From positions 70,453,025 to 70,517,024 of the forward strand of contig NC_057718.1 of NCBI RefSeq assembly GCF_004010195.1: a DNA stretch of 64,000 bases, given 5' to 3'. The notes beneath the pieces were generated by a model. That model was not told where the DNA came from. It did no database searches and was given only the letters and a program-made list of their open reading frames with translations. Below, piece after piece: positions 1 to 63,249 of this stretch. Position 1 is the first letter of the stretch, and every line of letters begins with the position of its first letter. Origin of the DNA: Chiloscyllium plagiosum. Its lineage: Eukaryota. The position numbers and the translations under genes are program-made.

Positions 1-450
1 AGCACAGCATTTCCACTCCCCCTCCCACTCCACCGAGGATATGCAGGTCATTGGACTCATCCACCGCCAAACCACAATAACGCGACGGTCGGAGGAGGAG
101 CGTCTTATCTTCCGACTGGGATCCCTCCAACCGCAGGGGATGAACTTGGACTTCACCAGTTTCTTCATCCCCCCTCCCCTTGTCTCAGCCGAATCCCTCC
201 AGCCCGGCTCCGCCTTCCTGACCTGCAGTCTTCTTCTTGACCTCTCCGCCTCCATCCTACTCCGACCTATCACCCTCACCTTGACCTCTTTCCACCTATC
301 ACATTTCCAACGCCCCTCCTCCAAGTCCCTCCTCCCTACCTTTTATCTTCTCCTGCTGAACACTCTCTGCTCATTCCTGAAGAAGGGCCTGTGCCCGAAA
401 CGTCGAATCTCCTGTTCCGTGAATGCTGCCTGACCTGCTGTGCTGTTCCA
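1..450 (+). mobile_element. Penelope-like element 3' end (GIY-YIG C-terminus, pyrimidine-rich 3' UTR, pLTR with hammerhead)
   Basis: Translation HFHSPSHSTEDMQVIGLIHRQTTITRRSEEERLIFRLGSLQPQGMNLDF parallels the GIY-YIG C-terminus at 63650-63810; followed by a hammerhead motif at 373-408. Confidence 0.85.
373..408 (+). ncRNA. Minimal type I hammerhead ribozyme motif, family A, intact
   Basis: ATTC-CTGAAGA-A-GGGC-CTGT-GCCC-GAAA-CG-TC^GAAT: stem I ATTC/GAAT, core CUGANGA, stem II GGGC/GCCC, GAAA, palindromic ACGT helix III, predicted cleavage after C404. Confidence 0.85.
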
Positions 451-454
451 GCAA

Positions 455-718
455 TAAAGTTTCAGGTTTTCTCTCCCTCTCTCTCTCTCTCTCTCCAGCA
501 CTGTCCTCACCATGTGCTTCCTTTGTCTGCTCTTCTCCCTTTTAAAACTGCTGTTGTTTTGACTTTTTTTCCCAAAGTTCCAAAACAATGCAACAGCATA
601 TAAAACAGTAATTGCTGCTCCTGGAATTCGAGGAAATCACCTCCAGCACCTAAAATACCTCAAAAAAAGGAGCAGCTCTTACAGCCAGAAATTTTTCCCA
701 TCCTCCATCTTGGATTAT
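455..718 (-). repeat. Unclassified interspersed repeat (probable retroelement 5' end)
   Basis: Reverse complement aligns with 25938-26170; both begin TAATCCAAGATGGAGG. Confidence 0.7.
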
Positions 719-1089
719 CCAGAATCCAGAGCCGATAGAGTGAATATGAGATATCAGAGAGAAGGTGGTGGCACTTACCACAGTGAAACAGAAAGTTGTT
801 GACCTTCTTGCGACACTACTGAACTGCGACACCAGTCCTCCCCACCATGGAGACTGCACTGGCCTCGGACTATGCTGAAAAGTCTAGTGACATGGCCTTC
901 TTTATTAATCTCCAGGAAGAAGAGAGTGTGGCAATCTCCTGGCCAGGGCATGGTGGTCTCTTAGCCTGGTGTGGCGGTTTTCAACCGTATGGTCTCAGTG
1001 TGGACTTCCGGCCTCAAGGCAATTCCACAGCAATTCCTCCCAACCTTGAGAGCCTCGAGAGCCTGGCATAGCCTGGAGTCAAGGCCTGG

Positions 1090-2999: not shown

Positions 3000-4410
3000 G
3001 GTGTAGGTCTAGGCCATTCAGACCCTTTATTTCCAGATGAAGGCCTTATGCCTGAAACATCGATTTTCCTGCTCCTCGGATGCTGTGCTTTTCCAGCATG
3101 ATACTCTTGACTCTAATCTCCCGCATCTGCGGTCCTCACTTTCACCCATTTAGACCCTTTAGCCTGCTCTGCCATTCAATCAGATCATTGTTGATCTTAT
3201 TGTGGTCTCACCTCTACATTACTGCCTATCCATGAAACCTTTTACCTCTCTTGTTGGTCAAAAATCTATATTCCTGCCTTCTACCACTCTCTAAGAAAGA
3301 GATTTCCACAGATTCACAACCCTCCAGGAGAAATACGTCTTCTCATTTTCAGTTTAAATGAGAAACCCTTTATTTTTAAACTGTGTCCTCTTGTTTTAGT
3401 CTCTCCCACATGGGGAAACATTCTTTCAGCATTCATCCTCTCAAATCGCCTCAGGTTCTTGAATATTTTAATAATAGCACCTCTCAATCTTCTAAATCCC
3501 AATGGATAAAACCTCAAATTAACAATCCTTTCCTTAGTGGAAAACCTCTCATCCCAGGAATCAGTTGGCTAACTTTCTCTGAGCATATTCTGTTGTAATG
3601 ATGACCTTTCTTGAAAAAGGAGACCAAAACTTACCACAGTAGGCTAGGTGGGATCCCACGAAAGCCTCGTTCAATTGTAGCAAAACTTGCCTACATTTTA
3701 TATTCCATTCCCCTTTCAATAAGAGATAATTCCATTTGCTTTCCTAACGACTTGCTGTATGTATGAAGTAGCTTTTAGTGATTTATGTTCCATGTCACCC
3801 AGCTTTGGATGACCCCAGAGGTGGTTATACTCTCAAGATTTAAATAATATGTTGCTTTTCTATTTTTCCCACTAAAGAGGACAACTTCACATTTTCCCTC
3901 ATTGCACTCCAACTACCAATGTTCTTAACTAGTCACTTAATCTTCAAGGGCATTTTGGAAAATTAAAATCAGTACATCTATCTCAGCAGCCATTTATTTT
4001 AAAGTCCATCAAGTCTGAGGACTTGTCAACTTTTCTCAGTACCTTTTCGCCAGTGATGTATTTATTTTAAGTCCCTTCATCCCCATCACTTCATCATAGA
4101 ATGGTTACAGCACAGAATGAGGTCATGTAGCCCTTCCGTCCATACCAGCTCTCATTTAGCTAGTCCTATAACCCCCTTTTCCCTGCAGTGTAGCATGTTT
4201 TTATGTTCAAATAATTATCCAATACTCTTGAAAACCACACTTTAATCTGCCTCCAAACACTCTCACATATATTCCAGATCCCTACCAATCACTGTGGAAA
4301 AACGATTTTCCTCCTGTTGTCATTGACTTCTTTCACCTTAACGAGATGTCCTCCATTTTTGACCCTTCTACCAATAGAAACAATGTCTCCCTATTTACTC
4401 TTTCCAGACT
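3000..4410 (-). mobile_element. CR1 LINE fragments (3' ORF2 and tail), old
   Basis: Minus-strand translation RRLRGAIIKIFK..ERMFPHVGETKTRGHSLK matches the CR1 ORF2 C-terminus. Confidence 0.8.
3030..3145 (+). mobile_element. Non-coding PLE pLTR mini-insertion with decayed family A hammerhead
   Basis: CAGATGA-A-GGCC-TTAT-GCCT-GAAA-CA-TC; flanked by a 16-bp TSD CCATTCAGACCCTTTA (3014-3029) / CCATTTAGACCCTTTA (3146-3161). Confidence 0.8.
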
Positions 4411-5372: not shown

Positions 5373-7274
5373 TTCAGGTATCTTCAAATGCTTGATAGAG
5401 GGAGAACCCAGGGATTCTGGAATAGTTGGAAAGGCTGTCAAGGAACCAGGCATATTTTGTTCCTGCATCATTGCGAGGTTACAGTTTTCATATGTTCCAC
5501 ATGCTTATTCAGGACTGTTGCACCTATCTGAACTTTATACATCACTGGACTTAACCTCATATCAACCATGCCTCTCACCAAGGGCCATTCCTGTGATTCC
5601 AAAACCAAACTTTGTCCAGAGGTAAACTGTCTCTCTTGTATAGTGGAGTTTTGTGTCTGTTATTGGCGTTGCTGATGCTGATTCATTCTCCCCTCCAGGT
5701 CCAGTAAGATCAGATTTAACCTGGTGTGGAGTCTTGTCCCCATTAGCAACTCTGCTGGAGCTATCCTTGTAGTTGCATAATCAAAATAAGGACAGGGATA
5801 GTTAGGTACGTAGTGAAGCTATAGGTTGTTTCTTTAAGCCTGCCTTCAAAGTTCGGACTGCCCTTTCTGTCAGACTATTGGATAATGGATGGTATGGTAC
5901 AATCCTTATGCATCAAATGCCATTTGACTTTAGGTAATACTCAAATTCCCTACTGGTAAATGAGGGCTCACTTTCTGAGACCAACACTTCTGAGCGAATG
6001 TGTGTTGCAAAGTTTTCTATCAGCGTCCCCATGTTTGATGAATTAACTCTCTGCATGTCCAGCCACTTTGAGTAAGCATCCACAATCACTAAGAACATTG
6101 AGCCCATTAAAGGACTTGCATAGTTGAAGTGTAACCAAGTCCTGGATTTACAGGCCATTTCCACAAATGTTGGGGAGTGGCTGGTGGTACTTTCCATCCC
6201 TGCTAGCACTCTTGGAACTGCCACACCAAGGCAGTTATGTCTGCATCTAATCCTAGACAATGGACATAACTTCTTGCCAACATCTTCATTTTGGAAATCC
6301 CTGGAAGACACTGAAAGAGGTCAACCAGTATCTGGTGGTGACCTTTGCTTAGGACAATCACTCTTGCTCCACGTAATATGCCATTCTCTATTGTGATCTG
6401 GCCTCTTTGAGTCCAAAAATGTTTCAATTCTAGTTGTGATGGCCCTTTGGTTTCCCCTATCACTACCAACTGTTTCAGTTTTGTTAAGACCAGATCTTTC
6501 TACATCCGAGGTCTAATCTTGTCAGCTGTGACTGGAAGTGTGTACAGAAAATTTAAAAACATTACAGACTCTTCCAGTGATGGTACAACCTGTGGTGCAT
6601 CTGCCAGTGGGAGATGGCTCAATGCATCCGCATTTGCTACTTGGCCTCCCAGGCAGTATACCAACTTGTAATAATATGCACTTAGTATTATAGTCCACCA
6701 CTGAATTTGTCCTGATGCTATGGGTGGCACTGCTTTGTCCTCTTGAAGTAGACTGAGCAGGGGTTTGTGGTCTGTTATAATTTCAAATGTGCCTCTGAAA
6801 AGATATTGGTGGAACTACCTGACTCCAAATATGACCGCCAAATCTTTCTTCGTTATCTGGGCATGTTTACAGTCTGCATTAGCTAAAGTCCCAAATTCAT
6901 ACACTATTGGAAGTTCCTCTCCATTTGGCCACCAATGAATTAACACTACCCCAATGCCGTATAGAGAGGTATCACATCTCAATACCTAGTATGCCAACAC
7001 CTTAGAGAATGATAGATGTTTCTTCACTTCCCTGAAAGCTATGGCTTGGCCATGTGACCATTTCAAAAGCTGACCTTTTCAACAGTTGATGCAAAGATAC
7101 GAGGATGGAGGTTAGGTTATATTCGAACCTTCCATAGTAATTCACCAGCCCAAGGAAAGACCTAAATTCTGGTACCTCCGTGGGAGCCGGGCATCTTTGA
7201 TTGCCCTTATATTATCTTCCAACAGGTGTAACCTGGTCTCATTAACTCTGTAGCCCAAGTAGGTTACTTGTGAT

Positions 7275-7381
7275 CAAAAACAGAAATTGAGGAAAAAGTT
7301 CAGCAAGTCTGGCAGTGTTTGTGGAAAGAAATCAGAGTTAACATTTTGGGTTGAGTGACCCTTCCTCAGAAGGCTTTGATT
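7275..7381 (-). mobile_element. Non-coding mini-insertion with decayed family B hammerhead
   Basis: Minus strand CTGAGGA-A-GGGT-CACTCA-ACCC-AAAA-TG-TT-AAC; TSD TAGGTTACTTGTGAT (7260-7274) / TAGGTCACTTGCGAT (7382-7396) inside the Gypsy RT. Confidence 0.7.
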
Positions 7382-8622: not shown

Positions 8623-8686
8623 GACTTACTGCTTCTCGGATGCTGCCTGAACTGCTGTGCTCTTCCAGCTCCATTTATCCAGAATC
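8623..8686 (+). mobile_element. Family A pLTR fragment starting at the predicted hammerhead cleavage site
   Basis: GACTTACTGCTTCTCGGATGCTGCCTGAACTGCTGTGC...CCAGAATC matches the sequence directly 3' of GTC^ in the 37121-37250 and 62617-62746 copies. Confidence 0.7.
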
Positions 8687-9825: not shown

Positions 9826-9870
9826 AATTGGAAGAGGTTTGGGATCATAGCATTCCTTCATAGCGTTCCT

Positions 9871-10173
9871 GGGCGGCACGGTGGCACAGTGGTTAGCACT
9901 GCTGCCTCACAGCGCCAGAGACCCGGGTTCAATTCCCGCCTCAGGCGACTGTGTGGAGTTTGCACGTTCTCCCCGTGTATGCGTGGGTTTCCTCCGGGTG
10001 CTCCGGTTTCCTCCCACAGTCCAAAGATGTGCAGGGTTAGGTGAATTGGCCATACTAAATTGCCCGTAGTGTTAGGTAAGGGGTAAATGTAGGGGTATGG
10101 GTGGATTTCGCTTCGGCGGGTCGGTGTGGACTTGTTGGGCCGAAGGGCCTGTTTCCACACTGTAATCTAATCT
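9871..10173 (+). mobile_element. tRNA-derived SINE (HE1-like), young
   Basis: A-box TGGCACAGTGG, B-box GGTTCAATTCC, CpGs retained, CR1-like 3' end GGGCCGAAGGGCCTGTTTCCACACTGTA plus (AATCT)n tail. Confidence 0.95.
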
Positions 10174-10489
10174 TCACTAAATCCATCAACTCTTGAAAGG
10201 TTTAATTTCTTGTGCCTCAGAGAAAGTTAGGCTCCTAGTAACCAAAAGGATCCACAAGCTGTCAGGAGAATTACTTGTTGCTTTTCATCTGGCCTAATAT
10301 CATTTGCCTGGAAAGAATAATATATTCTTTCCACATACTGGACCCAGTCTTCACTGGCTGGATCGAATGAGTCAAGCTTCCCAAATTACGGCATGGTGCC
10401 CAAAATGCTTACCCCAAATCAAAGGTGATTGTTGTCAGAAAATTTCTTCAGAAAAACGCTTTACTCTGCTAGCTTTTAATTCTCTTAAA

Positions 10490-12340: not shown

Positions 12341-12369
12341 TGGAATTCAGGGAGAGCTTGACAATTCGA

Positions 12370-12590
12370 GATGAAAATAGAAATTGCTAGAAAAGCTCAG
12401 GTGTGGCAGCATCTGTGAGGAGAAATCAGAGTTAACATTTCAGGTCGAATAGCTCTTCCTCAGAACTCAGTTAAATATTAAAATGTGAAACATTAATGAT
12501 TTCTCTCCACAGATGGCATCACACCTGCTGAGCTTTTCCAGCAATTTCTATTTTCGTCTCAGATTTACAGCACCCACAGTTCTTTCAGCT
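12370..12590. mobile_element. Inverted pair of family B pLTR fragments with decayed hammerhead
   Basis: 12370-12442 is an imperfect reverse complement of ~12486-12558; minus-strand GAGTT-CTGAGGA-A-GAGCT..GACCT-GAAA-TG-TT-AACTC at ~12429-12468. Confidence 0.75.
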
Positions 12591-12594
12591 TAAT

Positions 12595-13570
12595 AATTGG
12601 ATGTAACATTGGCTTGATGGTAGGAGACAGAGTGTGGTGGTTTCTCAGACAGTAAGCCTGTGACTAGCAGTGGTCCACAAGGATCAGTGGTGGGTCTGCC
12701 TGTTGTTAATATGCATATAAACAATTTGATGAGAATTTAGGAGGCATGGTTGGTAAGTTGGTGGATGGCACCAAATTTGGTGGCATAATGGACAGTGAAG
12801 AAGGTTATCTAAGATTAAAAAGGAATCTTGACCAATTGAGCCAATGGTCTGAGCTATGGTAGTTGGAATTTAATTTGAATAAATGTGACAAATTGTATTT
12901 TGGTAAAACTAACAAGGGCAGGACTTACAGGGTTAATGGCAGAGTCTTGGATAGCATTGTCAAACAGAAATCTAGTGATTTAGGAACATAGCTTAGCACA
13001 CTTGCCTCCATTGCTCAGACCTTTGATGTCACATTGAGGTTGTACAGGATGTTGTTCACACTACTTTCAGAGTACTATGTATAGTTCTGGTTGCCCTGCT
13101 ATAGGAACAATATTTAATTGGAGAGGGTTCTGAAAAGATTTAAGGATATTGCCAGGAAGGGAGGATTTGAGTTATAAAGAGAGGCTGGAGAGGCTGAGAT
13201 TTCTTTTCACTGGAGCGTAGGAGGTTGAAGGGTGACCTCACCGAGGTTTATAAAATCACAAAGGGCATAGATTAGATTAGATTACTTACAGTGTGGAAAC
13301 AGACCCTTCAGCCCAACAAGTCCACACCAACCCACCCCCACTCCCCTACATTTACCCTTGCACCTAACACTATGGACAATTTAGCATGGCCAATTCACCT
13401 AACCTGCACATTTTTGGACTGTGACCCATGCAGACACGGGGAGAATGTGCAAACTCCACACAGTCAGTCGCCGAAGGCAGGAATTGAACCCGGGTCTCTG
13501 GCACTGTGAGGCAGCAGTGCTAACCATTGTGCCATCGTGCCGCATAGATAAGGTGAATAGCGAAAGGTCA
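12595..13570 (+). mobile_element. CR1 LINE RT/3' fragment interrupted by a SINE
   Basis: Decayed PQGSV.G, SKL.DGTKFGG and LEFNLNKC motifs; resumes after the SINE. Confidence 0.85.
13269..13543 (-). mobile_element. HE1-like SINE
   Basis: Reverse complement of the 9871 consensus; (AGATT)n tail; GCATAGAT on both sides (TSD-like, overlapping the element ends). Confidence 0.93.
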
Positions 13571-13603
13571 TTAAGTTCAAAGTTAAAAGATATAGTAAGG
13601 AGA

Positions 13604-14295
13604 GTTAAAAATCGCACAATGCCAGGTTATCTTCCAACAGGTTTATTTGGAAGCATTAGCTTTTGGAGAGCTGCTCCTTCAGCCGTTGATTGTGGAGTAT
13701 AAGATTGTAGGACACAGAATTTATGGCAAAAGTTTACAGTGTGATGTAACTGAAATTATATACTGAAAAAGACCTGGATTGTTTGTTAAGTGTCTCATCT
13801 TTCAGAATGAATACATTGCTTTCAGTTTTCATATGTAAATCCCAGAACTTTTTAAAAATTACATTCTCAAGTGAACTTTAACAATTGGTGTCATGTCAGC
13901 CCAGATAATGCACTGAAGGTGTGAGGTGCCCTGCGTGAGACTGTCTGTGCCACAATGTTCAGACTGATTCTAATCTAAAAATCAGATTTACAGAATCTTA
14001 CATGGATTCATGTAAGTTTTTGAGCAAAATAAAATGTATGTGTGTGTGCGCATGTGCGCGTGTGTTTAGGGGGGGTATGACTATCAGTGAGAGAGTGTGT
14101 GTATATATATGTGTGTGATTGTGAGTATAAAGGGGTATAAGTCTGTCAGAGGGTCTGTGTGTGCGTGTGAGTGTGGGACTGTATATATGAGCATATGAGA
14201 GACAGCTTGTGTATGAGAGAAAGTCTGTATGCGTGTACGGGTCTGTAGAAGTGTGTGTGTGTGTCTGTGTCTCTGTGTGTGTATTCCCTGAGATG
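13604..14295 (-). mobile_element. Non-coding family C element (longer parent of the 46149 insertion) with decayed hammerhead and (TG)n-rich tract
   Basis: 13604-13697 aligns with 46149-46244; minus-strand CTGAAGGAGCAGCTCTCCAAAAGCTA is a decayed core; low-complexity TG tract ~14035-14285. Confidence 0.7.
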
Positions 14296-14309
14296 GGGAA
14301 TTGGAGAAA

Positions 14310-16803
14310 CAAGTGTTAGTTACTGCCCCGCAGAGTGAGAACTCAAATCCAGATGTCGTGGAGTTTGGTGTACCTCAAAATACGTTAAACAATGAGGAAA
14401 TCCTTGAGGAATGGGATAGGTGAGTGAACTATCTGTCTCAGGAGCAAAGAACCCAGTTGAAAGATTTGTTGCAGCAGTACGAGGATGCAGGAATAAAATG
14501 CGGAAGACTAATACTATTGTGCATGAGGTGGAAGAAGGGAATGGTGTTCCGATAAAAAAAACACTCCTACAGATGTAATCCTTCCAAAGCCACATAGGTC
14601 CAGAAGGAAGTGGATGCAATGCTCAATGAAAATATCATGAATCAAGTCACAGTGAGTGGAGTTTACCAATCGTGTTAGTTCCCAAATCTCACTAGACTCA
14701 ATTATTTTGTCTGGACTATCAGAAGGTCAATGCAGTAATAAAATCAGACTCATGCCCAATACCAAGATTGGAGGATTGTGTAGAGCAAGTTGGATAAGCC
14801 AGTTATATCACAAAGTAAGACTTAGTGCATGGTTATTGGCAGATACCTGTATCAGAGAAAGTGTGTTTGTAACTCCAAATGGGCTACATCAACTCAAAGT
14901 GATGCCTTTGGAATGAAGAACACACCAGCCATATTCCAAACACTCACGAACAGAGTTGTGGCTGAATTAACAACTGTGCACTTTATTTGGATGACGTAAT
15001 GATCTTTAGCGAGTCATGGAAAGATCACATGGTACATTTGGTAGAGCTCTTTGAACAATTACGAGAAACAAAACTGATAATAAACTTAAAGAAAACTGAA
15101 TTCACAAAGGCAGAGGTGACTTTCTTGGGACATAACATCGGTCATGGAAGGTTGATCCCAAAGAATGCCAAACAAATGCCATCAAGGAATTTCCATGACC
15201 AACCTCAAAGAAAGAAGTGCTTCAATTTTTGGGACTAAGTGAATTTTACTGTAAGTTTGTTCCAAACTTCAGCAGCATGGTGGCACTGCTAATAGATTTA
15301 CTGAAGAAGAACACAACATTTTGGTGAATAGAACAATGCCAGGAAGCATTTGAGAATTTAAAGGTAGCATTAACCACTGCACCAGTTTTAGCTACACCAA
15401 ATTTTTTGAAAGCATTCAGAGTTGCAATTGATGCTAGTGATAAAGGAGTTGGAGCTGTACTGCTACAGGAAGATAGGAGAAAGTGAGGACTGCAGATGCT
15501 GGAGATCAGAGCTGAAACTGTGTTGCTGAAAAAGCGCAGCAGGTCAGGCAGCATCCAAGGAACAGGAGAATCGACGTTTCGGGAGATGATGATGGAATTG
15601 AACAACCAATTGGATACTTTTCAAAGAAACTCAACACCCACTAGAGAAAATACGCTACCATGGAAAACGAATTATTGAGTTTGGTACCAGCCTTGCAACA
15701 GTTTAATGTTTACGTGATGAACAATGTGTTGGAGACAACTGTGGACCCGGATCACAATCCTCTTACAGTCTTGGAACAATTTAAAACAACAACATGAGAC
15801 TGTTTCATTGGAGTATATGTTACAGACATTTAATTTACAATTTTCATGTTGCAGGTCGTAAAAATGTGATAGCAGATGCTTTATCATGGATTTAAAGGAT
15901 AAGATTGGACAGATTCCAAGGTTATATATATGTGTGCAGAAATTAATATGAATTTAGATTAATGTCTTTTGTACTTCGTTGTAATGGGATTAAGAAACAG
16001 GAAAAAAAAGAAACCATCTTTTCATTATGAAGTGGGGAGGTGTTATGAAGTTGAAGGCGTGTCTTGTACCTTAAAGAGAGAGTGAATGCTGTTTGCGCTG
16101 AGAGCTTACAAGCACCTGTCATATGACTAACCAGCAGTCCCAGAATATACTGGAAAATTGAAAATACATTTGGCTGTGAAATAGATACATGAGATGGTTG
16201 CTGTTTTGACAACTTGAACTTAACCAATCAGTTTAAATTATGCCTCAGGATACTAAAACCCAATCGAGTTTAAATATATTGTTTTGCCAACCTTGAATCA
16301 ATGAGACAATCCAATGTGTGGGGTATTAAAAAAGACAGGCATTTTGAAAATCAGAGAGAGTAACTGCCATCAATAGAGTAACTACCATCAAAACACTCTC
16401 TATCAAAGATACCTTTACATTTGAAAAATACTCGCAGTAAAAGAAAGATGACGACCCAGGGAGATCTTCAGCTGGAAGACAAACACTGACAACAGCCACA
16501 TGTGCTTTTGAAATTAAGTTGAGGTAAGTTTAATAAGGGTTTTTATTGGAACAATATATTGTCATAGAGTTGGAGGCAGATAATAAGCAGTTAAGAGAAA
16601 GGGAGGCTTAGAGTTGTGAATAGTTGTTGTTTAATGTGCACTTTTTGAGTTAAAAAATTTATTTTATTGATTTGATTTTATTTTCTTTAAATAATGGAAT
16701 TTGGGAGTTTCTGTCAGTCATATTTTAACAGGTCATGAAGCGAGGTGAGCTTTCCTGGGTGGTTGGTGTAATTAACAGAAGGGTTCACCGCCGTTTCATA
16801 ACA
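14310..16803 (+). mobile_element. Gypsy-superfamily LTR element, Gmr1-like (RT-RH directly followed by PPT and 3' LTR), decayed
   Basis: FVTPNGLHQLKVMP, YLDDVMIFS, AIDASDKGVGAVLLQ, NVIADALS then stop ~15895; PPT GAAGTGGGGAGG; LTR 16041-16803 with 9-bp terminal inverted repeat TGTTATGAA...TTCATAACA. Confidence 0.85.
15475..15583 (-). mobile_element. Family A pLTR mini-insertion, 5'-truncated within hammerhead stem II
   Basis: Minus strand starts CCC-GAAA-CG-TC-GATTCTCC; interrupts RNase H between LLQED and DDGIEQPIGYFSKKL. Confidence 0.85.
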
Positions 16804-18950
16804 ATAGGGCTCGGGATGGTATTAGCTCATAGATGGCCTAATGGAGAGGTATGCCCATTCACTTATGTATTCAGGGCTTTCACTAATACAAAGTGTAAAT
16901 CCATCCAGATAGATAAAGAAGGAATGACAATCATATTTGGAGTCAGGAAAATCCACAATTCCTTTATGGATGAAGATTTGTAATTATCATGGACCATGGT
17001 CTGTTTAAAGAGGACAAGGCAGTGCTGCCTATAGCTTCAGGCCACATTCAGTTGTGGTCTCTAATACTAACTGCTTGTAATTATAAGTTACAACATCATC
17101 AAGGAGGTCAAGTAGCAAATGCGGATGCATTGAGCCACCCTGCATAAGCAGATACACCATCAATAACACATCCAAAAGAAAAGTCTGTACTGATATTAAA
17201 TTTTCTGTACACACTTCCAGTCACAGCTAACAATATCAGACCTTGGAGACAAGACGATCCAATCCTTTCCAAACTGCAATGACTAATATTAATGGAGGGG
17301 GGGGTGGGGGGGGGTGGTGGGGCGGGGGGGAGGNNNNNNNNNNNNNNNNNNNNNGTGGTGGTGGTGGTGGTGACAGGGGAAGCTGAAGGGCCATCAGAAC
17401 TGGAATTGAAACCTTTTTTGACCTAGGCACACCAGTTCATGGTAGCAGTATTGTTATGGGGAGCAAGAGTAATTACCCCAAGCAAAGGTTGCTGTCAAAT
17501 ATTGGCTGAATTCCACCAGGGTGATCCAGGGGTCTCCAAAATGAGTGAGATATTATGTCTAGTGGCCAGGCTTGGATGTACATATAGCTGCATTAGTGGG
17601 ATAGTGCCCAGAGTGCCAACAAGGACAAAATTACCACTAGCAGCCCTCCCAGATCTTGGGGAGTGGCTGGATAAACCTTGGACTGAGTTGCACATCGACA
17701 GTGCAGGTTCTTTTAGGGGTTCAATTTTCTTACTGATTACAAATGCCCACTCAAAGTGGTTGGATGTACGTAGTATCCATACATCAAACACAGGGATGAA
17801 AAACTGCCTGCATCCTTTGCAACACATGGAGTTCCAGAAGTGTTGGTCACAGATAATGGGTCATTGTTTACAGCAGAGACTTTGGTTATTTCTTAAAGTT
17901 GAAGGGGATTCAAAATAAAATGGCAGCTCCATACGACCCAAGGTCCAATGACCTGGCAGAAACAGAGGTCCAAACTTGAAGGCTGGATTGAAGAAATAGT
18001 GTACATCATCATTAGATACCATTCTGTCACAATTATTATTTGATTATTGGACCACTCCATATGCAACTACAGGGATAGTACCGGCTGGGTTGTTCATGGG
18101 TAGAAGACTCTGCTCCAAGTTATCTAATATTCCAAAACTTGGAGGGGAAGGTGAAATGGCATCAGGAACTCCAATGCCAGACTCAAGACTCTGCCAGGTG
18201 AGAGAGGCAGTTTGATACAGGGGACAAGGTTTAGTATAAGAATCATGAGTAAGAGACATGGTCGCGCAAGATCAGGACCAGTGATATATTAAGTTTGGGT
18301 AGTTGCAAAGATCCTGAATAAGCATCTGGACCATATGAAAGATGCAAATTCTCAAACAGTGCAGGGGCAAAACACGCCCTGCCCATTGGAGCCTTCGCAA
18401 ATGCTGCCAGAACCCATGAATTCGCCCTCTCAGTCAATCATTCTCGAGTCCTTTGGATCAATGATGGAAGTAATGGAAGTAGCCTTTGATGCCAGAAAGA
18501 AAGTGAAATTTTATCGAGGTGTACCTGGTGCAAAAGGTGAGTTCTGGTGTGTTACACGTTGTCGATGTTGGATGCCAAGTTGGAGGAACCTGATTAGATT
18601 ACTTACTTACAGTGTGGAAACAGGCCCTTTGGCCCAATAAGGCCACACCAACTCTCCGAAGCGAAACCCACCCAGACCCATTCCCCTACACCTAACACTA
18701 CGGGCAACTTAGTATGGCCAATTCACCTGACCTGCACATTTTTGGATTGTCGGAGGAAACCGGAGCACACCCATGCAGACACGGAGAGAATATGCAAACT
18801 CCACACAGAGAATCGCCTGAGGCTGGAATTGAACCTGGGTCTCTGGCGCTGTGAGGCAGCAGTGCTAACCACTATGCCACCGTGTCGCCCATGAGGCTAA
18901 AACGCCCCAGGAGGCTCTGCAAGAGGAAGAACTCATTGTTCCATACCCTG
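16804..18950 (+). mobile_element. Gypsy internal fragment (RH-INT), same family as 4415-9045; contains G-rich tract and 21-N gap
   Basis: KPWTELHIDSAGSFRGSIFLLITNAHSKWLDV integrase motif; IQIDKEGMTIIFGVRK RNase H motif; Ns at 17334-17354. Confidence 0.88.
18592..18890 (-). mobile_element. HE1-like SINE
   Basis: Reverse complement of the SINE consensus with A/B boxes and (AGATT)n tail. Confidence 0.93.
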
Positions 18951-21400
18951 GAAGTCCAAACACATCTAGCTTGGAATAGTTTAAATTGCTTAGCAACAGC
19001 CAAATCAGAACCAATCAAATGGACATCTGGTTAAATGGTCATTCGGTTCTAATGGATGTCGATACCAATGCAGCCTTTTTGGTGATTGCAGAACCAGAAT
19101 TCACTCTGGATTCCAACCCTTAAAGCTGTGAAAGACCTAGGCTTGATTGAGAACCTATACTGGGGAACCTTTACAGATTAACAGTACAACTTTGTTTCCA
19201 GTCTCTTATGAGAAGGAGATCATTCAGTTACCAGTGATTGTAGTAAAAGACTCGGGTCCAAGCTTGATGGGATGATATTGGTTGAGAAAGATTCACCGAG
19301 ATTGACTCTAAGTTAGAAAATGACTGCCCGAGTGAAGTCATAATTAAACACTCAGAAGGTTTTCAGGAAAGACTATGGACTATCAATGGAGCCAACTTTT
19401 CATGTTGACCAGGAAACAATTCCACAATTCTGCAAGGTCTGCCCAATGTCATTTGCTTTAGAGGCAAAAGTAGAGGCAGAAATCAAGACTAAAGGTGAAG
19501 GAATCATCAAACCAGTCCAGTTTGGGGAACAGGCAGCACCAGTCAGACAAATTCTGAAGCCTCGTGGATCGGTTCACCTTTGTGGAGATTTCAAACAAAC
19601 GATAAACCACTTTTTGTAGCCTCATAAATACCCAGTTCCTCACAAAGCTGGTTGGGGAGCTGTTCTTCAAGAAGCTGGTCATGAGCCATGTATACTTGCA
19701 ATTGCAATTAGATGAGGATTCCCAGAAGTATGCTACTCCCATAAGAGTTTGGTAGTATGAGACTACCTTAGGAGTATCATGGAGAAATTTTAGAAGGTCT
19801 ACCCAGGTTACCATTTATTTATATGACTAATAACAAGGAAGACCAAAAAGTGTGATTAAAGGACATTGTGGTTCTTGTACAGAAAAATGGTTCTTGTACA
19901 GTCCTCCCAGGTGGTTGTACACCTGTGAAGGGAAAAATGTATGTTCTATGCACCCCAAGTGACATACTTGGGCTACAGAGTGGATAAGACTGGGTTATAC
20001 CCATTGGAAGATTAAGTGAGGGTGATCAAAGCTTTCACATCTGTACTGGAGCTTAGATCTTTCCTTAGGCTGGTGAGTTATTTTGGAAAATTTCAGACAT
20101 AAACAGGCTTCCATCCAGGTACCTTTGCGTCAACTCTTAAAAAAGGATCAGCCTTGTAATTGGTCATGTTGCCAGGGAAGTGAAGAAGCAGCTATCGTCC
20201 AAGTGAGATCTAGGTATTGACTCACAATGACTCCCCATATGGCATCAGAGTAGTATTAGTTCATAGGTGACCCAACACAGAGGAATGCCCATTAGCATGT
20301 GCATCCAAGATTTTATCTAATACAAACCATGAAAACACTCAAATAGAGAAGGAAGGTTTGGAATATTTGGAATCAGGAAGTTCCATCATTGCATTTATGT
20401 ATATAAATTTTTAATAATAATAGACCACAAACCCTCGCTAGGTCTAGTTAAAGAGGATGAGATAGTGTCATCCACAGGTTCAGGCCAAATTCTGTGGTGG
20501 ACACAAATTCTAAGTGTGTGTAATTACAAGTTGGAATACCTTCTGGGAGGAGAAAGTGAGGACTGCAGATGCTGGAGATCAGAGTCGAAGAGTGTGGTGC
20601 TGGAAAAGTGCAAAGTTGGAGAGTTGAACCTGGGATGAGGTGGGGGGAGGGGAGATGAAATCAACATTGATCCCATATGGTTGGAGGGTCCCAAGATAGA
20701 AGATAAGGCGTTCTTCCTCCAAGTGTCAGGTGGCTAGGATTTGGAGGTCCTAGCTTGTTCTTGGCAGAGTGGGAGGGAGAGGTGAAGCTATTGGCCAAAG
20801 GGCAATAGGGTTGTTTGGTGCTTGTGTCCTGGAGATGTTCTCAGAAATGTTTATTTCAGGTATGTAGACCGTATGAAAGCAGCAAACTTGCGAGCAGTGT
20901 GGGAGCAAATCATGCCCGGCTCCTTGACTGCCTTTCTGACTGTTCCAAAAACTCCCTTTCCATAAAGCATGAAGGTACCACAGAATCTCAGATGTCACCT
21001 GAAGAGGAGAATAAATGTCTCCTGTGATGCTTCTGGCATAAAAGGCAAGGCACTGTGCATTACATGCCCCCATATCAGATGTACAGTTGGAGGAACCTGA
21101 CCTGGTGCTGAAACGTTCCAAGAAGACCTACAAAGAAAAGAACTGGCCTATGTCCTCAGACTCAGAGGGGCACGGATGTAGTGATTGTAAAAAATTCAAC
21201 CAGGGGATCTCGTAGAATACGAGTTCCTTTGGGCTGTTAATCTGGTCCAATGGAGTCTTGGCTGACATTTATAAACAAAAGTGCCAGGGGTTCTGTTAAC
21301 TCTGAGAACTGACTCCAAGGAAGCTAGATCAGTGTCAAGGACTCTCCACATGTAAATAAAGGTGACTTGGTGATGGGCCAGTCTCTGTGAAGCTATTTTA
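18950..21400 (+). mobile_element. Gypsy copy (PR-RT-RH, integrase missing, 3' region, PPT, 3' LTR 21177-21400)
   Basis: LNGHSVLMDVDT protease-like; KPRGSVHLCGDFKQTIN RT; LTR starts TGTAGTGATTG after a purine tract, contains AATAAA, homologous to 4415-4650. Confidence 0.88.
20548..20850 (-). mobile_element. Penelope-like 3' fragment (GIY-YIG C-terminus plus partial pLTR)
   Basis: Reverse complement matches 63590-63850 (GGAGGAAGAACGCCTTATCTTC) and the family A 3' end CAGCATCTGCAGTCCTCACTTTCTCC. Confidence 0.85.
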
Positions 21401-21404
21401 ATCA

Positions 21405-27216: not shown

Positions 27217-28072
27217 CGAAGCTGCATCAGAACATTATTTCAATGAGCCAACACACACTGCAGCACAGTGGAACTGCACAGGGCAGAGGAAAATCACCTA
27301 TACCGTGTATTAAAAAAGAACGGGTACCCAATGAACACAATCCACCGATCTCTCAGCAGCAAACCCAAACAAGTGAACAAAACACGTCCAGAAACCCTAG
27401 CCACTCTCCCCTACATCAAAGACATCTCAGACATCTCAGAAATGACTGCCAGACTACTCAGACCCCTTAGCATCATGGTGGCCCAGAAACGCACCAACAC
27501 ACTAAAGCAGCAGCTAATGAACTTGAAAGACCCTATACAAACAACAAGTAAAACTAATGTCATTTACAAAATACAGTGAAAGAATTGTAATAAACACTAC
27601 ATTGGACAAACAGGCAGAAAACTAGCCATCAGGATATACGAACACCAACTAGCCACAAAATGACATGACCCTCTCTCACTAGTGTCCTTACATACAGATA
27701 AGGAAGGACACCACTTCGACTGGGACAAGACATCCATCTAGGACAAGCCAAACAAAGACATGCACAAGAATTCCTAGAAGCATGGTATTCTAACTGGAAC
27801 TCTATCAACAAACACATCACGTTAGACCCCATCTACCACCCTCTGAGAAAAAGAACAGGAAATGACATCAACAAAGGAAATGACATCACAAACCCAAAGA
27901 AACCCAAATATATAAAGAGAAAACAGGAATCATGTACACTGCTTCGCTGGAGGCCCACTGAAGATGTTGCCTAGTAGGGTGACAAAACGTCTGGAAATGA
28001 ACCTGCCAGCTCAGCGAGCAAATCTACATCCAGAACCTTAACCTGAGCTACAAATCATCTCAAAACTCGCTA
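27217..28072 (+). mobile_element. Penelope-like element (Poseidon/Penelope-type), 5'-truncated, decayed, with family D hammerhead
   Basis: KNGYP..TLPYIKDISE..NVIYKIQ*KNCNKHYIGQTGRKL (GIY-YIG); 10-bp TSD TGGAACTTAT at 27207-27216 and 28073-28082. Confidence 0.92.
27955..27994 (+). ncRNA. Minimal hammerhead motif, family D, core G mutated
   Basis: CCA-CTGAAGA-T-GTTGCC-TAGTAG-GGTGAC-AAAA-CG-TC^TGG; stem I CCA/TGG; GAAA changed to AAAA. Confidence 0.7.
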
Positions 28073-36270: not shown

Positions 36271-36271
36271 T

Positions 36272-44759: not shown

Positions 44760-45885
44760 GAAAAACCACACATATGGACCAAAAGCAATCACCCCAACAC
44801 CTACAAACGAAGCTGCATCAAGACATTATTCTGACGAGCTACATCACACTGCAACACCCAAGAACTACAAAAAGCAGAAGAAAAATACCTATACAACATT
44901 TTCAAGAAAAATAGGTCCCCAGTAAACACAATCCACCTTTTCCTCAGAAACAAACCCAAACAAGCAGACAACGCAACGAAAAACTAAGCCACATTACCTT
45001 ACATCAAAGACATATCAGAAATCACTTCCAGACTACTCAGACCCCTTGGCATCATGGTAGCCCATGAACCTACCAACACACTTAAACAGCAACTAATGAA
45101 CCTAAAAGATCCAATAGATACCAGCAGCAAAACTAACTTCATTTACAAGATACCATGCAAGAACTGTAAAAAACACTACATCAGACAAACTAGCAGGACA
45201 CTTGCCACCAGGATACGTGAACACCAGCTGGCCACCAAAAGACACGACCCACTATCACTAGTTTCTATACAGGAGAAAGTGAGGTCTGCAGATGCTGGAG
45301 ATCAGAGATGGAAATGTGTTGCTGGAAAAGCGCAGCAGGTCAGGCAGCATCTAGGGAACAGGAGAATCGACGTTTCGGGCATTAGCCCTTCTTTGACTGA
45401 GACAACACACACATCCTCAGACAGGTAAAACAAAAACATGCATGAGAATTCTTAGGATTCTCCTGTTCCCTAGATGCTGCCTGACCTGCTGCGCTTTTCC
45501 AGCAACACATTTCCATCTCTAGTTTCTATACATACAGACAAAGAAGGATGCCACTTTGACTGAGACAACACACACATCCTCAGACAGGTAAAACAAAAAC
45601 ATGCATGAGAATTCTTAGAGGCATGGCACTCTAACCAGAACTCCATCAATAAACACATCGATTTAGATCCTATCTACCTTCCCTTGAAAAAAATAACATC
45701 ACCCACCTTAAGAAACCAAGCCCTATAAATAGAGAGGTGGGACATACCACCAGCTCTTCACCAGAGACGCTTACTGACTGACCATGTTACTTAGTATGGT
45801 GTCTGAAAACAAACCCTCAAGCTTAGCGAGTTAATTTACATATTTATCATCAACCTGAGCTACAAATCTTCTCAAAAATCGCTAA
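44760..45885 (+). mobile_element. Penelope-like element (same family as 27217-28072), decayed, with nested complex insertion
   Basis: NFIYKIPCKNCKKHYIRQTSRTLATRIREHQLATK (GIY-YIG); same 3' end CCTGAGCTACAAATCTTCTCAAAA..CGCTA. Confidence 0.92.
45271..45518. mobile_element. Inverted family A pLTR insertion with captured 65-bp target copy
   Basis: TSD CTAGTTTCTATAC (45258-45270, 45519-45531); arms 45304-45368 and 45456-45520 are reverse complements; spacer 45391-45455 equals 45554-45618. Confidence 0.9.
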
Positions 45886-46148: not shown

Positions 46149-46366
46149 GTTAAAAATCACACAACACCAGGTTATAGTCCAACAGGTTTAATTGGAAGCA
46201 CACTAACTTTCGGAGCGACGCTCCTTCATCAGGTGATTGTGGAGGGCTGATGAAGGAGCGTCGCTCCGAAAGCTAGTGTGCTTCCAATTAAACCTGTTGG
46301 ACTATAACCTGGTGTTGTGTGATTTTTAACTTTGTACACCCCAGTCCAACACCGGCATCTCCGAAT
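46149..46366. mobile_element. Inverted family C element with two oppositely oriented hammerhead motifs
   Basis: 84-bp arms 46149-46232 and 46247-46330 (1 mismatch); CTGATGA-A-GGAGC-GTC-GCTCC-GAAA-GC-TA-GTG on +, and the equivalent with stem I CAC/GTG on -; TSD-like CATTATTCCATG (46138-46149) / CATTATTTCATG (46367-46378). Confidence 0.9.
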
Positions 46367-46429
46367 CATTATTTCATGAGTTGTTACAAACACATCTCCG
46401 AATCATTATTTCATGAGTTGTTACAAACA
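46356..46429 (+). repeat. Perfect 37-bp tandem duplication spanning the insertion junction
   Basis: CATCTCCGAATCATTATTTCATGAGTTGTTACAAACA twice (46356-46392, 46393-46429). Confidence 0.95.
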
Positions 46430-51030: not shown

Positions 51031-51325
51031 CGGGTGGCACAGTGGTTAGCACTGCTGCCTCAGCGCCAGAGACTTGGGTTCAATTCCCACCTCAGACTGT
51101 GTGGAGTTTGCATGTTCTCCCCGTGTCTGCACGGGTTTTCTCCGGTGCTCCGGTTTCCTCCCACAGTCCAAAGATGTGCAGGTCAGGTGAATTGGCCATG
51201 CTAAATTGCCCGTAGTGTTAGGTAAGGGGTAAATGTAGTGGTATGGATGGGTTGAGCTTCGGCAGGGTGGTGTGGACTTGTTGGGCCGAAGGGCCTGTTT
51301 CCACACTGTAAGCAATCTAATCTAA
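51031..51325 (+). mobile_element. HE1-like SINE
   Basis: A-box TGGCACAGTGG, B-box GGTTCAATTCC, (AATCT)n tail. Confidence 0.93.
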
Positions 51326-52141
51326 TGTGTCACCTAGCTACAAATAGCTTTAGTTGCTGAAAGCTGAGTCAAAGGGATGCTTTATGTGTTAAAGGAGAAA
51401 AGCAAAGCCAAAAGAGGTGAAGGAAGAGGATTCCAATGCAGGGAGCTTAAGTAACTGAAAGTGTGGTCATTAGTTAGTGACCAACTCTGTAGAGTTCACA
51501 TGTTCTTCCTAAACATTGCCCTGTAGTATCCAAGGACGTGCAGCTGGAGTGGGTTGACTATGGTTTTAAATCCCCATGTGCAGTTAGGGGGATGGGATAG
51601 AATGGGGTGCTTTTTAAAGCGTCAGCGCAGGTTTGATAATCTAAATCTTTTTTAAGATGTCATCCATGGCTCAATGGTATCACTGTTCAATACTCAAACC
51701 CAGGTTATCAAACTTGACTGTAAAGACTTGATGTAGGTCCACACTAAGGTTAAGGATATGCTGTTTTGAGATTGTTAAATTGAACATTAAAAGGTTCTGT
51801 GCATAGTGGTGAAATTGTTCACAGTGACATCATTGTCATTTATCAATGTCTCAAACATTTGAATATTTTATTTCATTGATGTTTGTGGGATCTTGTGTAG
51901 AAATGGGCTGCAGTGTTTTATCATGTTATGACAGTAGCTATGCTTGGGTTTGCTCAAGTATTTTTGGATGTCAGTGTTGCCAAGTGCTATACAAGAAAAA
52001 TTGTGATGACTTGAAAATTTCTTGATTTTTAAGTGTCTTGGATCACTCATGAACTAGAGTAGCCAAATGGGTTTGGTTTTATATTTTCTGATCAACTTGT
52101 CTTGAGACTTGAACCCATCTCTCCTGGCTTAGAGATGGGAA

Positions 52142-52515
52142 GAGAAAGTGGGGACTGTAGATGCTGGAGATCAGAGTCAAAACATGTGCTGGAAAAGCAT
52201 GGCTGGTCAGGCACATCCAAGGAGCAGGAGAGTTGATGTTTTGAGCAAAAGCCCTTCAGGAATGAGGTGGTGGCCCAAGGGAGTGGAGGTAAATGAGGGG
52301 TGGGGCTGGGAAAGGTAGCTGGGAATGCAATAGGTAGATGGAGGTGGGGGGGGGGGGGTGATGTACAGTTTGAAGGTGGTGCTAGGATAAGAGGAGGGGG
52401 AAATGAAGAAACTGGTGAAATCAACATGGATCCCATGTAGTTGGAGGGTCCCAAGGTGGAAGGTGGTGGTCTTTAGGCATTGGGTGGCTAGAGTTTGGTG
52501 GTGGAGGAGGCCCAT
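52142..52515 (-). mobile_element. Penelope-like 3' fragment with decayed family A hammerhead
   Basis: FHLGTLQLHGIHVDFTSF on the minus strand; CATTCCTGAAGGGCTTTTGCTCAAAACATC decayed core. Confidence 0.85.
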
Positions 52516-52571
52516 GGGAGCACTATCATTGCACCACAACAGTCCTAACTTGGTTCAGTTTAACATAACTG

Positions 52572-60700: not shown

Positions 60701-62527
60701 TCACTAGAATGCAGGGGATTGAGGGGTAACCTGAAGTTTATAAGATTGTGTGAATGGAGTGGAATGTTGGCTTCCTCCCCCCCCAGTGTGGAGCGCTCCA
60801 TTTAATAAGTGGGGAGGGGGAAGGCAGTGGTTGTGAGGAGTGGGAGTTTGAGATGTGCAAGTCCAGCTTTTCTCATGAAGGGTGGTGAGCATGCTGCCAG
60901 AAGATGTAGTGGAAGCAGATGCACTAATAGCATTCAGGAAGTACCTGGATGCCTACATGAATAGGAAGGGAATAGAGAGATGTAGATCCTGTAAGTGAAG
61001 ACCATTTTCAGTATGGAAGAGCAAAATGCATCAGCCCAGGCTTGAAGGGTCTATTCTAGTACCATGGAAGAACAATATCCTTCCTACAGAAGGGCAACCA
61101 GAACTGGACACTACTCCAGAAGAGACTCCCCAGCGTCATGTACAACCTCAATATAGCATCTGAACGCCACACGCAATGGCCTGAGCAATGAAGGCAAGCA
61201 TGCTAAATGCTGCCTTAACCACCCTGTCTACCTGTGACACAAATTTCAAAGAACTGAGGTTTCTGCTCTGCAATGCTCTCCAAGGCCCTCCCATTAACTG
61301 TAAGTCCTCCCCTTGTTTGTTTTTTAACAAAATACCTTGCATTCATCCAAATTAAATTCCATCTGCTGCCACTCACCCCATTGGCCAATTAATCTCTTTG
61401 TAAACTTGGATAAGCTTCTTTTTACTGTCCACTATACCACCAATTATGTGTTATTTGCAAACTATGTTCTCATTTAAAATCACTTAATGAACAAAATTGG
61501 ACCCAATAAGCTTTCAATTGATTTTCTTCAAGTACATTTAGAAAATGTTTTTTCACACTAAAGGAATGTTGAGATATATGTAGATTATAAACTAGATATG
61601 GTTTTTGAATGTTGACTTAATTATTCCTGAGTAAGTATTGATCATGAGTCTTGCCCTAAGTAATTTATTTTGGTAGGTAATGAGGAAAACTTAGGTTGAC
61701 TTCTATTTTATATAGCAAATTCCATGACCTCCGGATACCAGACACTTCACAGCTAATGAAATTTTGAAATGTAGCTCTTCCCACATAGCAAGCTGCCAAA
61801 AACAGTGATCATGAGCTGCTAATCTGTTAGTGATTTTTGCTTGTTTTGAAGCTTTGTTTTGAGGCATAAGTATTGGACACTGAAGAAAACCTTCCTCTTG
61901 TTCAGAGTAATATATTCCCTTTCTTTTAGGGCTCAATGTAGGAGCAATAAGTTGAGAGCACCCTGGATGTCTAAAAATATTCGGAACTGGTTAAGAAAGA
62001 TTAGCATACAAATGAAAAAATCAACCGAGGCTGTAATCACGTAGAATGTGTGCAGGGATGGTGCTTAAGGAAATAATTGGAGCAAAGACTCATCATGCAA
62101 GATTTAGTGAGAATCTCAAGATATTTGAGAATATCAAGGGCAAGAGAATAACCAGGGAAAGAATTGAGCAAATTAGCTGTCCTCCGGTCCTCTGTCTGAT
62201 GTGGTTTCATTTACTTTTTAATAAAAGGATGGTAGAGAATCCAAGGAAATAAAAGGCAGCAAGTCTCTCGTTAGTGATAGGAAAGCTGTTGGGGGAAAAA
62301 AGAATTCTGAAAGAGAATTGAATTTCTAACTTAGAAATGCTAGATGTACAGCACAGAAACTGACCCTTCAGTCCACCTCATCCATGCTGACTGCGTATCC
62401 TAATCTATTCTAGTCCTATTTGCCAGCACTTGGCCCATATATCCCTCCAAACCCTTCCTATTCATATACCTATCCAGATGCCTTTTTAAATATTGCCATT
62501 GTACTAGCCTCCACTAAATCCTCTGGG

Positions 62528-62746
62528 ATTCTGGATCAGTGGTGCTGGAAGAGCACAGCAATTCAGGCAGCATTCGAGGACAGGCAAAATTGACGTTTTG
62601 GGCAAAAGTCCTTTTTATTCCTGATGAAGGGCTTTTGCCCGAAACGTCGATTTTTGCCTGTCCTCGGATGCTGCCTGAATTGCTGTGCTCTTCCAGCACC
62701 ACTGATCCAGAATCTGGTTTCCAGCATCTGCAGTCATTGTTTTTAC
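62528..62746. mobile_element. Inverted family A pLTR insertion
   Basis: TSD CTAAATCCTCTGGG (62514-62527) / CTAAATCCACTGGG (62747-62760); arms ~62527-62612 and ~62628-62714. Confidence 0.9.
62617..62652 (+). ncRNA. Minimal hammerhead motif, family A, intact core, weak stem I
   Basis: ATTC-CTGATGA-A-GGGC-TTTT-GCCC-GAAA-CG-TC^GATT. Confidence 0.8.
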
Positions 62747-63249
62747 CTAAATCCACTGGGAGCTCATTCCATACACGCACCACCCTCTGTGTGAAAAAGT
62801 TGCCCTTATCTAAATTAAACTCCATCTGCCACTCCTCAGCCCATTGGCCTAGCTGATCAAATCCCGATGTACTCGGGTATCCTTCGCTGTCCACTACACT
62901 TCCAATTTTGGTGTCATCTGCAAATTAACTAACATTTCCTCCTATGTTCACGCCCAAATCACACTCACTGATCCTTGTGGCACACCACTGGTCACAGACC
63001 TCCAGTCTGAAAAGCAATCTTCCATCACTATGCTGTCTTCTATCTTTTTTGAGCTAGTTCTGTATCCAAATGGTTAGTTCTCCCTGTATGCCATGAAATC
63101 TAACCTTGCTAACCAGTCTCCCATGAGGAACTTTGTCGGACACCTTACTGAAGTCCATATAGATGACGTCCATCGCTCTACCTTCATCAATCCTCTTTGT
63201 TACTTCGAAAAGCTCAAGCAAGTTTGATACATGAATATGGAAAGTAATG

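Follow-up and report, generated by a model that had tools for sequence, protein, structure and literature searches.

How did a 64,000-nt stretch of the shark genome of Chiloscyllium plagiosum (contig NC_057718.1, positions 70,453,025 to 70,517,024 of the forward strand; the window below) come to hold so many hammerhead-like motifs in short repeats? A preliminary description had listed 14 sites and assigned them to four families (A to D) of minimal hammerhead ribozymes (HHRs) riding Penelope-like elements (PLEs) and tiny non-coding insertions. All 14 indeed lie inside repeats derived from the pseudo-long terminal repeats (pLTRs) of families A to D, but only four keep both core boxes and stem II. 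We regard the motifs as minimal type I hammerheads in the pLTRs of endonuclease-bearing (EN+) PLEs, with at least four families and a fifth elsewhere in the genome, and suggest that the short copies reflect the capping and copying of PLE RNA; with this reading of template and cap included, the probability is put at about 0.75.

For each of the four families there are loci in which the motif comes after a GIY-YIG frame. When matches up to 900 nt upstream of a motif were counted, overlapping loci separately, the A-type GIY-YIG query gave 21 matches upstream of A motifs, two upstream of B motifs and 12 upstream of none; the C-type query had all three of its matches upstream of C motifs, and 33 of 44 matches to the D-type query preceded D motifs. 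The apparent linkage is thin for B (two matches) and C (three matches, two of which are one place). An atlas search puts the frame at 63277-63999 in a GIY-YIG cluster at 0.95; in the genome this frame has 113,056 first-look candidates, and the distinct GIY-YIG frame followed by family D has 58,724. Fragments with reverse transcriptase (RT) motifs are present in other loci. The 39 pairs among 122 insertions described below match the EN+ PLE unit in their adjacent inverted 5' pLTR copy, one-ended tail and target-site duplication (TSD). Families A to C are presumably Neptune-like and family D Poseidon-like, labels taken from motif resemblance rather than from a tree; the label of D also leans on a start codon at stem II, as in the anole element PAc.

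Pairing of stems I and II was analyzed in 12 hand-picked, related rows from families A, B and D and the fifth type (E), family C being omitted because it is misaligned by one column. In total, 90.5% of cells are paired, compared with 20-40% in slid controls, and seven of eight pairs are changed on both sides; the rows being related and hand-picked, this is support rather than a probability. In stem II all cells are paired (100%), three of four pairs are changed on both sides, and G10.1-C11.1 is G-C in 12 of 12 rows; in stem I, 81% of cells are paired and four of four pairs covary. Invariant in these rows are C3 to A9 except N7, G10.1, C11.1, GAAA and CGT. Stem I comprises 3 bp in C and D and 4 bp in B. 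Family C has its own stem I, CAC/GTG, and a palindrome with GC instead of CG, and among D subfamilies stem I switches from CCA/TGG to TCA/TGA. The proposal of several families of minimal type I hammerheads on PLE pLTRs, with helices covarying across families, is supported.

Other structural claims were evaluated in a genome sample of 60 stretches of 10 kb each, spaced evenly (574,895 non-N bases, about 575 kb). The extra base after CUGANGA is present in 56 of 62 matches to a strict, family-blind descriptor (CTGANGA, 0-2 nt, stem II of at least 3 bp, GAAA). The palindrome said to replace helix III is likewise seen: CG or GC occurs in 155 of 198 intact-core copies and most exceptions are CpG-type changes; the core-intact site 46232 has AGTT. 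A fifth stem-II type was seen twice in the sample (L137:4716 and L130:3860), where loop II has 3 nt, stem II is GGGTTATGCCC-like and stem I is peculiar to the type.

The sample's 62 descriptor matches compare with a shuffle mean of 3.6; the 48 that also have the NN-UH part (83 per Mb) would correspond to about 3x10^5 in the 3.56-Gb genome if extrapolated. Both boxes together with the NUH triplet are found at four of the 14 listed sites. Exact core patterns, whose counts are lower bounds, match 81,470 times for A, 18,482 for C, 1,072 for D and 192 for B, at least 101,216 in total, while reversed-pattern controls, run for all four families, gave 0. The genome-wide signal is therefore unambiguously far above controls. 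The window by itself only modestly exceeds chance, with six descriptor matches against a mean of 1.4 in shuffled windows, six being reached in 2 of 100 shuffles; four of the six are family members (C3 at 377 on the plus strand, 46232 on the minus strand, 46247 and 62621 on the plus strand) and two are unassigned (30125, 44947). Intact or decayed pLTR arms number 161 in the 575 kb (A 111, B 28, C 13, D 9), about 5.6 per 20 kb. The expectation of a very large and diverse ribozyme-bearing population, at several copies per 20 kb, is thus confirmed. So is the expectation that standard annotation misses it, at least for Rfam: among seven matches at E of 1 or less in the window, all under gathering scores, no hammerhead family appeared. 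As to other species, 80-100% of sampled words of the family C sequence at 46233-46368 are present in sequencing runs of three organisms, and this family is therefore common to related species.

The ends of the copies are informative about their origin. Most copies are only 100-250 bp long. With positions counted from C3, the first C of the CTGANGA box, and the predicted cut at about +28, the modal 5' start precedes the core by 4 nt in A and by 8 nt in C, away from the cut site. The mode for the 111 A arms is -4/-3; 20 extend more than 30 nt upstream of C3, and four have their start between +28 and +30, about where the cut is predicted. Most copies therefore retain the piece that self-cleavage would remove. 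Loose read ends on the family A pLTR also pile up at -4 in independent sequencing runs. The 3' ends of arms are bimodal, at about +80-94 or +120-127. Short family D copies (sample loci L161, L162, L173, L174) seem to start about 15-20 nt before the core, farther than those of A or C.

The 161 arms form 122 insertions, among them 39 head-to-head pairs, typically 180-240 bp in length. Thirty pairs combine a long and a short arm, three a long and a truncated arm, and six have arms alike; the excess of unequal pairs (33 of 39) has p=7e-6 against a coin-flip null. A TSD was called in 24 of the 39 pairs (10-18 bp) and in 7 of 83 solo insertions (9-16 bp), compared with 2 of 300 random controls. Since central junctions vary from copy to copy, each fold-back arises anew. 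The tiny insertions, previously taken for an independent non-coding family, look instead like end products of PLE retrotransposition. Cleavage of neighbouring motifs as dimers also finds no support here: the close pairs 46200/46247 and 62590/62617 are head-to-head, on opposite strands, and the read-through RNA of pairs is predicted to form a single 80-90-bp hairpin burying the ribozyme, so that pairs cannot supply a cleaving dimer in cis. A layout that could cleave as a cis dimer was seen in the sample, where two direct-orientation family D hammerheads lie 387 bp apart (L176/L177).

The 5' ends carry a further mark. At the base that replaces the genomic C at the modal 5' end, the first 100 of 5,724 family A matches have G 65, A 20 and T 15 times, and the first 100 of 1,487 family C matches have G 77, A 10 and T 13 times, the background expectation for G being 0.26; both tallies are from contigs C1-C2 and were made by eye. 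One position further out, family A has G 19 and A 19 times (Fisher p=0.006), the remaining 62 being C, probably a subfamily variant. The 25 upstream bases of the 100 A matches were then sorted by eye, leaving out rows explained by a partner arm and element-derived duplications. Rows with host-like upstream DNA and no partner arm have G in 20 of 33 cases (p=3e-5 against 0.26), or 19 of 32 with a duplicated locus counted once, and rows in which the partner arm does not supply the last base have G in 15 of 22 (p of about 3e-5 to 8e-5 across both tests). The family A end falls on TCATTCC, which is initiator-like. A comparable untemplated 5' G is borne by full-length L1 and SVA insertions, as far as the accessible part of that report goes (PMC3287187), and an internal promoter with an initiator in the pLTR region is described for the Penelope element of D. 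virilis in the available text of another (PMC2377424).

On these grounds we suggest the following scheme. Transcription would quite likely start 4-8 nt upstream of the core, giving an RNA composed of cap, stem I, hammerhead, about 100 nt and then the open reading frame (ORF). The PLE protein would probably nick both target strands 10-18 bp apart, and from each nicked 3' end reverse transcription would be primed at either of two sites within the RNA, near +90 and near +125 from C3. Priming at the 5' copy of both sites would yield a cDNA of 100-130 nt that extends as far as the cap and acquires one more base there, which is read as G. A single cDNA of this sort would produce a solo mini-insertion, and two joined by their 3' ends a head-to-head fold-back of 190-220 bp with the tail on one arm. 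The template RNA would not have been cut by the ribozyme, and arms that overlap would call for a second RNA or, on a single RNA, for strand displacement. We thus lean, with some reserve, towards mini-insertions as records of a capped sense RNA that begins at stem I and is copied uncut from both nicks at two fixed sites. For an anole PLE, the protein was shown in vitro to cut and extend both strands, reverse transcription starting at two internal sites that bound the tail, on unprocessed RNA (PMC11167929). Dispersed copies would then decay neutrally, mainly at CpG. In 62 sampled A arms the CpG positions, including that in which G12 lies, are the least conserved of the core, and such CpG-biased loss appears to fit neutral decay.

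Several observations weigh against this scheme or the class assignment behind it. The partner arm can explain about half of the G rows in the 100-row A view; the tallies cover only the first 100 matches, from two contigs and by eye; and a check at the level of TSDs found G at one of five solo junctions, accompanied by a duplicated piece. Callable TSDs are also few among solo insertions, at just 7 of 83. Concerning the ribozyme, the 4-bp stem I of the main A subfamilies contains a U.U or U.C mismatch, and the 62621 monomer prefers a predicted fold that buries the core; cofolding of two monomers returned no canonical dimer fold, a model result that says little on activity. In the 62 sampled A arms, conservation of the core does not exceed that of the 50 nt downstream, a comparison made uninformative by the post-insertion CpG decay that dominates it. 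Pfam support for the endonuclease is weak, the D frame reaching E 3.5e-4, under the cut-off, and the A and C frames giving none; the GIY-YIG fragments in the window had no Pfam match. No complete RT-endonuclease ORF was found among four long-frame loci, whose sequence is mostly N. Finally, among four sequencing runs compared with the family A pLTR, the one informative RNA run placed 1,287 reads there, on both strands and with 95% entering unlike sequence, while another RNA run placed none; the reads are from copies carried on both strands inside other transcripts. The informative run showed no pile-up of starts or ends, in a library type that cannot show 5' ends.

Among alternatives, one of low probability is that the short copies descend from dedicated master genes resembling short interspersed elements (SINEs), that is, solo pLTRs whose transcripts begin with a templated G and are mobilized in trans by the PLE protein. 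Most arms are indeed without any ORF sequence, a solo pLTR with its own promoter would yield the same short RNA, and trans-mobilization via pLTR sequences is described in the accessible part of the rotifer paper (PMC3846280). However, the sequence upstream of the G varies between copies, the G replaces a genomic C in two unrelated families, at the modal end of each, and short and ORF-linked copies have subfamily variants in common; a sense RNA starting before stem I would be needed anyway.

We give the same low odds to the 5' ends being truncation hot spots on a long RNA, with RT stalling or falling off immediately past the hammerhead fold, the G arising from a C added by terminal transferase activity or from microhomology with the partner arm or the target. 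This would account for ends scattered from about -10 to +7 rather than at a single base and for copies that pass the site, and the commonest single junction, of CAGG with ATTC (about 12 of 100 rows), is one that the partner arm explains. Yet the G excess is confined to -5 and absent at -6, it persists where there is no partner arm or where the arm does not supply it, and the A end coincides with an initiator-like sequence.

The head-to-head structures could in principle result from self-priming on an antisense template, a model published for rotifer Penelopes and, in the accessible text, left open (PMC3846280); perfect central palindromes, as in several CAGGAATTCCTG rows, would agree with it. 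Nevertheless, the centre of a pair is the sense 5' end plus the extra G, centres differ per copy and often have fillers that include host DNA, and outer ends lie at the two fixed sites that match RT initiation on the sense strand in vitro. Arm and end patterns favour a sense template, and we consider self-priming quite improbable here. For comparison, twin priming of L1 produces non-overlapping inverted pieces, while the arms here duplicate the same sequence.

A slightly poorer chance is given to the ribozyme making the template, a unit-length or circular RNA as in retrozymes, with the dispersed motifs as active catalysts. One window arm (45456) begins exactly at the cut site, and dimer cleavage of minimal HHRs has been published, at low rates according to the available part of the paper (PMC4209133). 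This stands against only 4 of 111 A arms starting near that site while most retain the removable part, against the hairpin predicted for the read-through RNA of pairs, and against HHR mutants that left insertion of the anole PLE in vitro unaffected (PMC11167929). Head-to-tail arrays of short units, in addition, are absent from the window, the only part of the genome in which they were sought. Miniature inverted-repeat transposable elements would likewise be short, non-coding inverted-repeat units with TSDs, but unequal arms, centres different in every copy, TSD lengths of 9 to 18 bp and the occurrence of the same sequence behind PLE GIY-YIG frames make such DNA transposons hardly credible.

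What, then, would the ribozyme do? The anole hammerhead cuts only in the presence of the protein (PMC11167929). If cleavage here took place, as a dimer and probably with assistance of the protein, the RNA would lose its cap and, in family D, its start codon as well; the ribozyme is therefore read as a processing step or an off switch on master transcripts rather than as the maker of templates. This is the least supported step of the scheme, and the odds on it are even. Lunse and colleagues reportedly observed dimer cleavage of minimal HHRs in 2017. The boldest reading, doubtful in our own estimate, is that the ACGU/AGCU palindrome owes its conservation mainly to a role in bringing two RNAs together in a dimeric ribonucleoprotein with one template per nick, which would account for long and short arms that overlap being found together in almost every case; if true, the hammerhead would be a dimerization signal more than a cutter.

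In the window itself, most of the listed sites are dead or truncated through CpG decay, broken cores or 5' truncation. The only motif with every element including stem I, and outside any fold-back, is that of the family A pLTR at 211-464 (plus strand): stem I at 373-376/405-408, CTGAAGA at 377-383 followed by the extra A, stem II at 385-396, GAAA at 397-400, then CGTC, and the predicted cut after 404. Its predicted fold contains stems I and II. Three solo mini-insertions have called TSDs, namely one of family A at 3031-3146 (plus; 16 bp) whose core box at site 3034 has decayed to CAGATGA, one of family B at 7277-7371 (minus; 11 bp; GAAA changed to AAAA at site 7369), and one of family A at 37122-37250 (minus; 10 bp) with the long (tail) end and the same change at site 37247. 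Three more arms are degraded, that is, a family C pLTR with a long upstream part and a broken core at 13603-13981 (minus; site 13655), a family A arm at 15476-15583 (minus) that begins within stem II and has no CTGANGA box (site 15583), and an older family A arm at 52142-52267 (minus) with a broken core (site 52235), its 3-nt deletion being accompanied by GAAA changed to AAAA.

Two family D elements are present. The first, at 27217-28068 (plus), contains the 3' part of the ORF (GIY-YIG region), the pLTR and a hammerhead (C3 27958) whose GAAA has become AAAA; an ATG overlaps the extra T preceding stem II, and the same frame is open for 37 codons in sample locus L164 and stays open through the tail. 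The second, at 44808-45884 (plus), has a GIY-YIG frame at 44988-45269 and a deletion-damaged hammerhead, and is split by a family A head-to-head pair at 45272-45517. The nested pair comprises a long minus arm (site 45393, CTGANGA partly or wholly missing), a 64-nt filler and the short plus arm from the predicted cut site, with a TSD of 14-18 bp. Its filler, 45392-45455, is an exact 64-nt copy of host DNA at 45555-45618, about 35 nt past the TSD, and is read as a template switch onto flanking DNA during joining.

Three more head-to-head pairs were found. The family B pair at 12368-12583 combines a minus arm with a decayed hammerhead (C3 12463, stem II decayed) and a coreless plus arm at 12487-12583, and no TSD was called for it. 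In the family C pair at 46149-46368 (12-bp TSD), the short minus arm (C3 46232) has an intact core beside its AGTT, and the long plus arm (C3 46247) keeps core and AGCT, the 5' strand of stem I being absent. An exact 37-bp tandem duplication at 46356-46429 spans the end of this pair and its right TSD. The family A pair at 62527-62747 (15-bp TSD) has a short coreless minus arm (site 62613, CTGANGA partly or wholly missing) and a long plus arm with an intact core and a U.U mismatch in stem I (C3 62621). Sub-threshold Rfam matches to microRNA precursors cover parts of the fold-backs at 46188-46291, 62560-62682 and 12397-12528, which are candidate sources of double-stranded RNA; the microRNA and small-RNA matches on palindromes were dismissed as matches of hairpin shape.

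The sites listed earlier are real pLTR derivatives, but the list was incomplete. It had passed over arms at 8626, 12487, 20548, 45456 and 45691, as well as the GIY-YIG-like C-terminal frame at 63277-64000 (plus), which enters a family A pLTR; the hammerhead of this pLTR starts some 20 nt past the end of the window. The first and third of these arms are family A fragments, one with only the part downstream of the hammerhead (8626-8686, plus) and one with only the tail (20548-20612, minus).

Repeats of other kinds are also present. Frames at 29846-30867 (plus) match SGNH/GDSL (PF13472) and apurinic-endonuclease-type (PF03372) domains, and we take them to be typical of the ORF1 and ORF2 starts of long interspersed elements (LINEs) of the CR1/L2 type; many LINE 3' fragments occur elsewhere in the window. 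Decayed frames at 5913-6320 (minus) and 17427-17918 (plus) resemble, by eye, integrase fragments of long terminal repeat retrotransposons, and Pfam gave no match for the latter. A second abundant short repeat, SINE-like and about 300 bp long, has copies at 1821-2045, 9983-10180, 13361-13542, 18689-18890, 21931-22243, 25322-25491, 28290-28486, 32397-32708 and 51130-51326. ARAGORN found no tRNA in the window.

The finding is a known phenomenon at unusual abundance, and it offers a lead on mechanism that can be tested. Rfam misses at least 10^5 minimal hammerheads that look intact, about ten times the minimal HHR counts of coelacanth and Xenopus and similar to the retrozymes of axolotl. With 39 of them in 575 kb, the fold-backs could contribute many 80-90-bp RNA hairpins to host transcripts and give rise to numerous false microRNA calls. 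Papers on PLEs have not settled the sense or antisense nature of the template, the origin of head-to-head repeats or the purpose of the ribozyme. The patterns in 5' ends, extra G and arm lengths make such questions testable from one genome plus an existing in vitro system. New in this analysis are the 5' ends of short copies before the core, the extra G, and the pairing of long with short arms. A literature search with most subscription journals, Repbase and Dfam outside its coverage found no report of a cap-derived G in PLEs and no paper on PLE hammerheads of these families in sharks.

Novelty of kind cannot be claimed, since the paper on metazoan PLE minimal HHRs (Cervera and De la Pena 2014, PMC4209133) already describes the class and its presence in large numbers in vertebrates, together with the extra base, the palindrome and pairs on opposite strands. 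Both sets have a type I core without helix III, an extra base between 9 and 10.1, G10.1-C11.1, a palindromic 15.2-16.2, location in pLTRs, several families per genome, and mostly dispersed single motifs with some opposite-strand pairs. The stems are shorter here (I 3-4 bp, II 4-7 bp), and the counts given in that text are about 4,000 in coelacanth and about 9,000 in Xenopus versus at least 101,216 here, by differing descriptors; no cartilaginous fish is named in the available part. Non-LTR retrozymes (PMC7229834; bioRxiv 10.64898/2026.07.22.740005) are, as far as those sources are available, likewise short, non-coding, PLE-related and type I HHR-bearing, with 126,247 HHR motifs in axolotl (PMC7229834) and an occurrence in one chondrichthyan (bioRxiv 10.64898/2026.07.22.740005). 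They differ in head-to-tail arrays, mostly canonical HHRs and circular RNAs, whereas the copies here are solo or head-to-head and have minimal HHRs. L1 and SVA, the precedent for the 5' G in the accessible part of that report, belong to another retroelement class (PMC3287187).

The canonical EN+ PLE unit (Craig et al. 2021, PMC8557442; Arkhipova et al. 2013, PMC3846280), in the portions available, has the same pLTR after the ORF, adjacent inverted 5' copy and 30-40-bp tail at one end, with TSDs of about 8-10 bp; in this genome what is left of the unit is usually no more than the final 100-130 nt of the pLTR, sharply delimited on the 5' side and bearing the extra G. The rotifer paper, in the same accessible text, prefers antisense self-priming (PMC3846280), unlike the sense template favoured here. 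A close parallel is Poseidon PAc of Anolis carolinensis (Frangieh et al. 2024, PMC11167929), with two internal RT start sites bounding the tail, both strands extended, an uncut RNA template and, as in family D, an ORF that starts at stem II. The main text on PAc does not deal with the cap, the start site or fold-back products, and families A to C, unlike PAc, have no lasting open start-codon frame at stem II.

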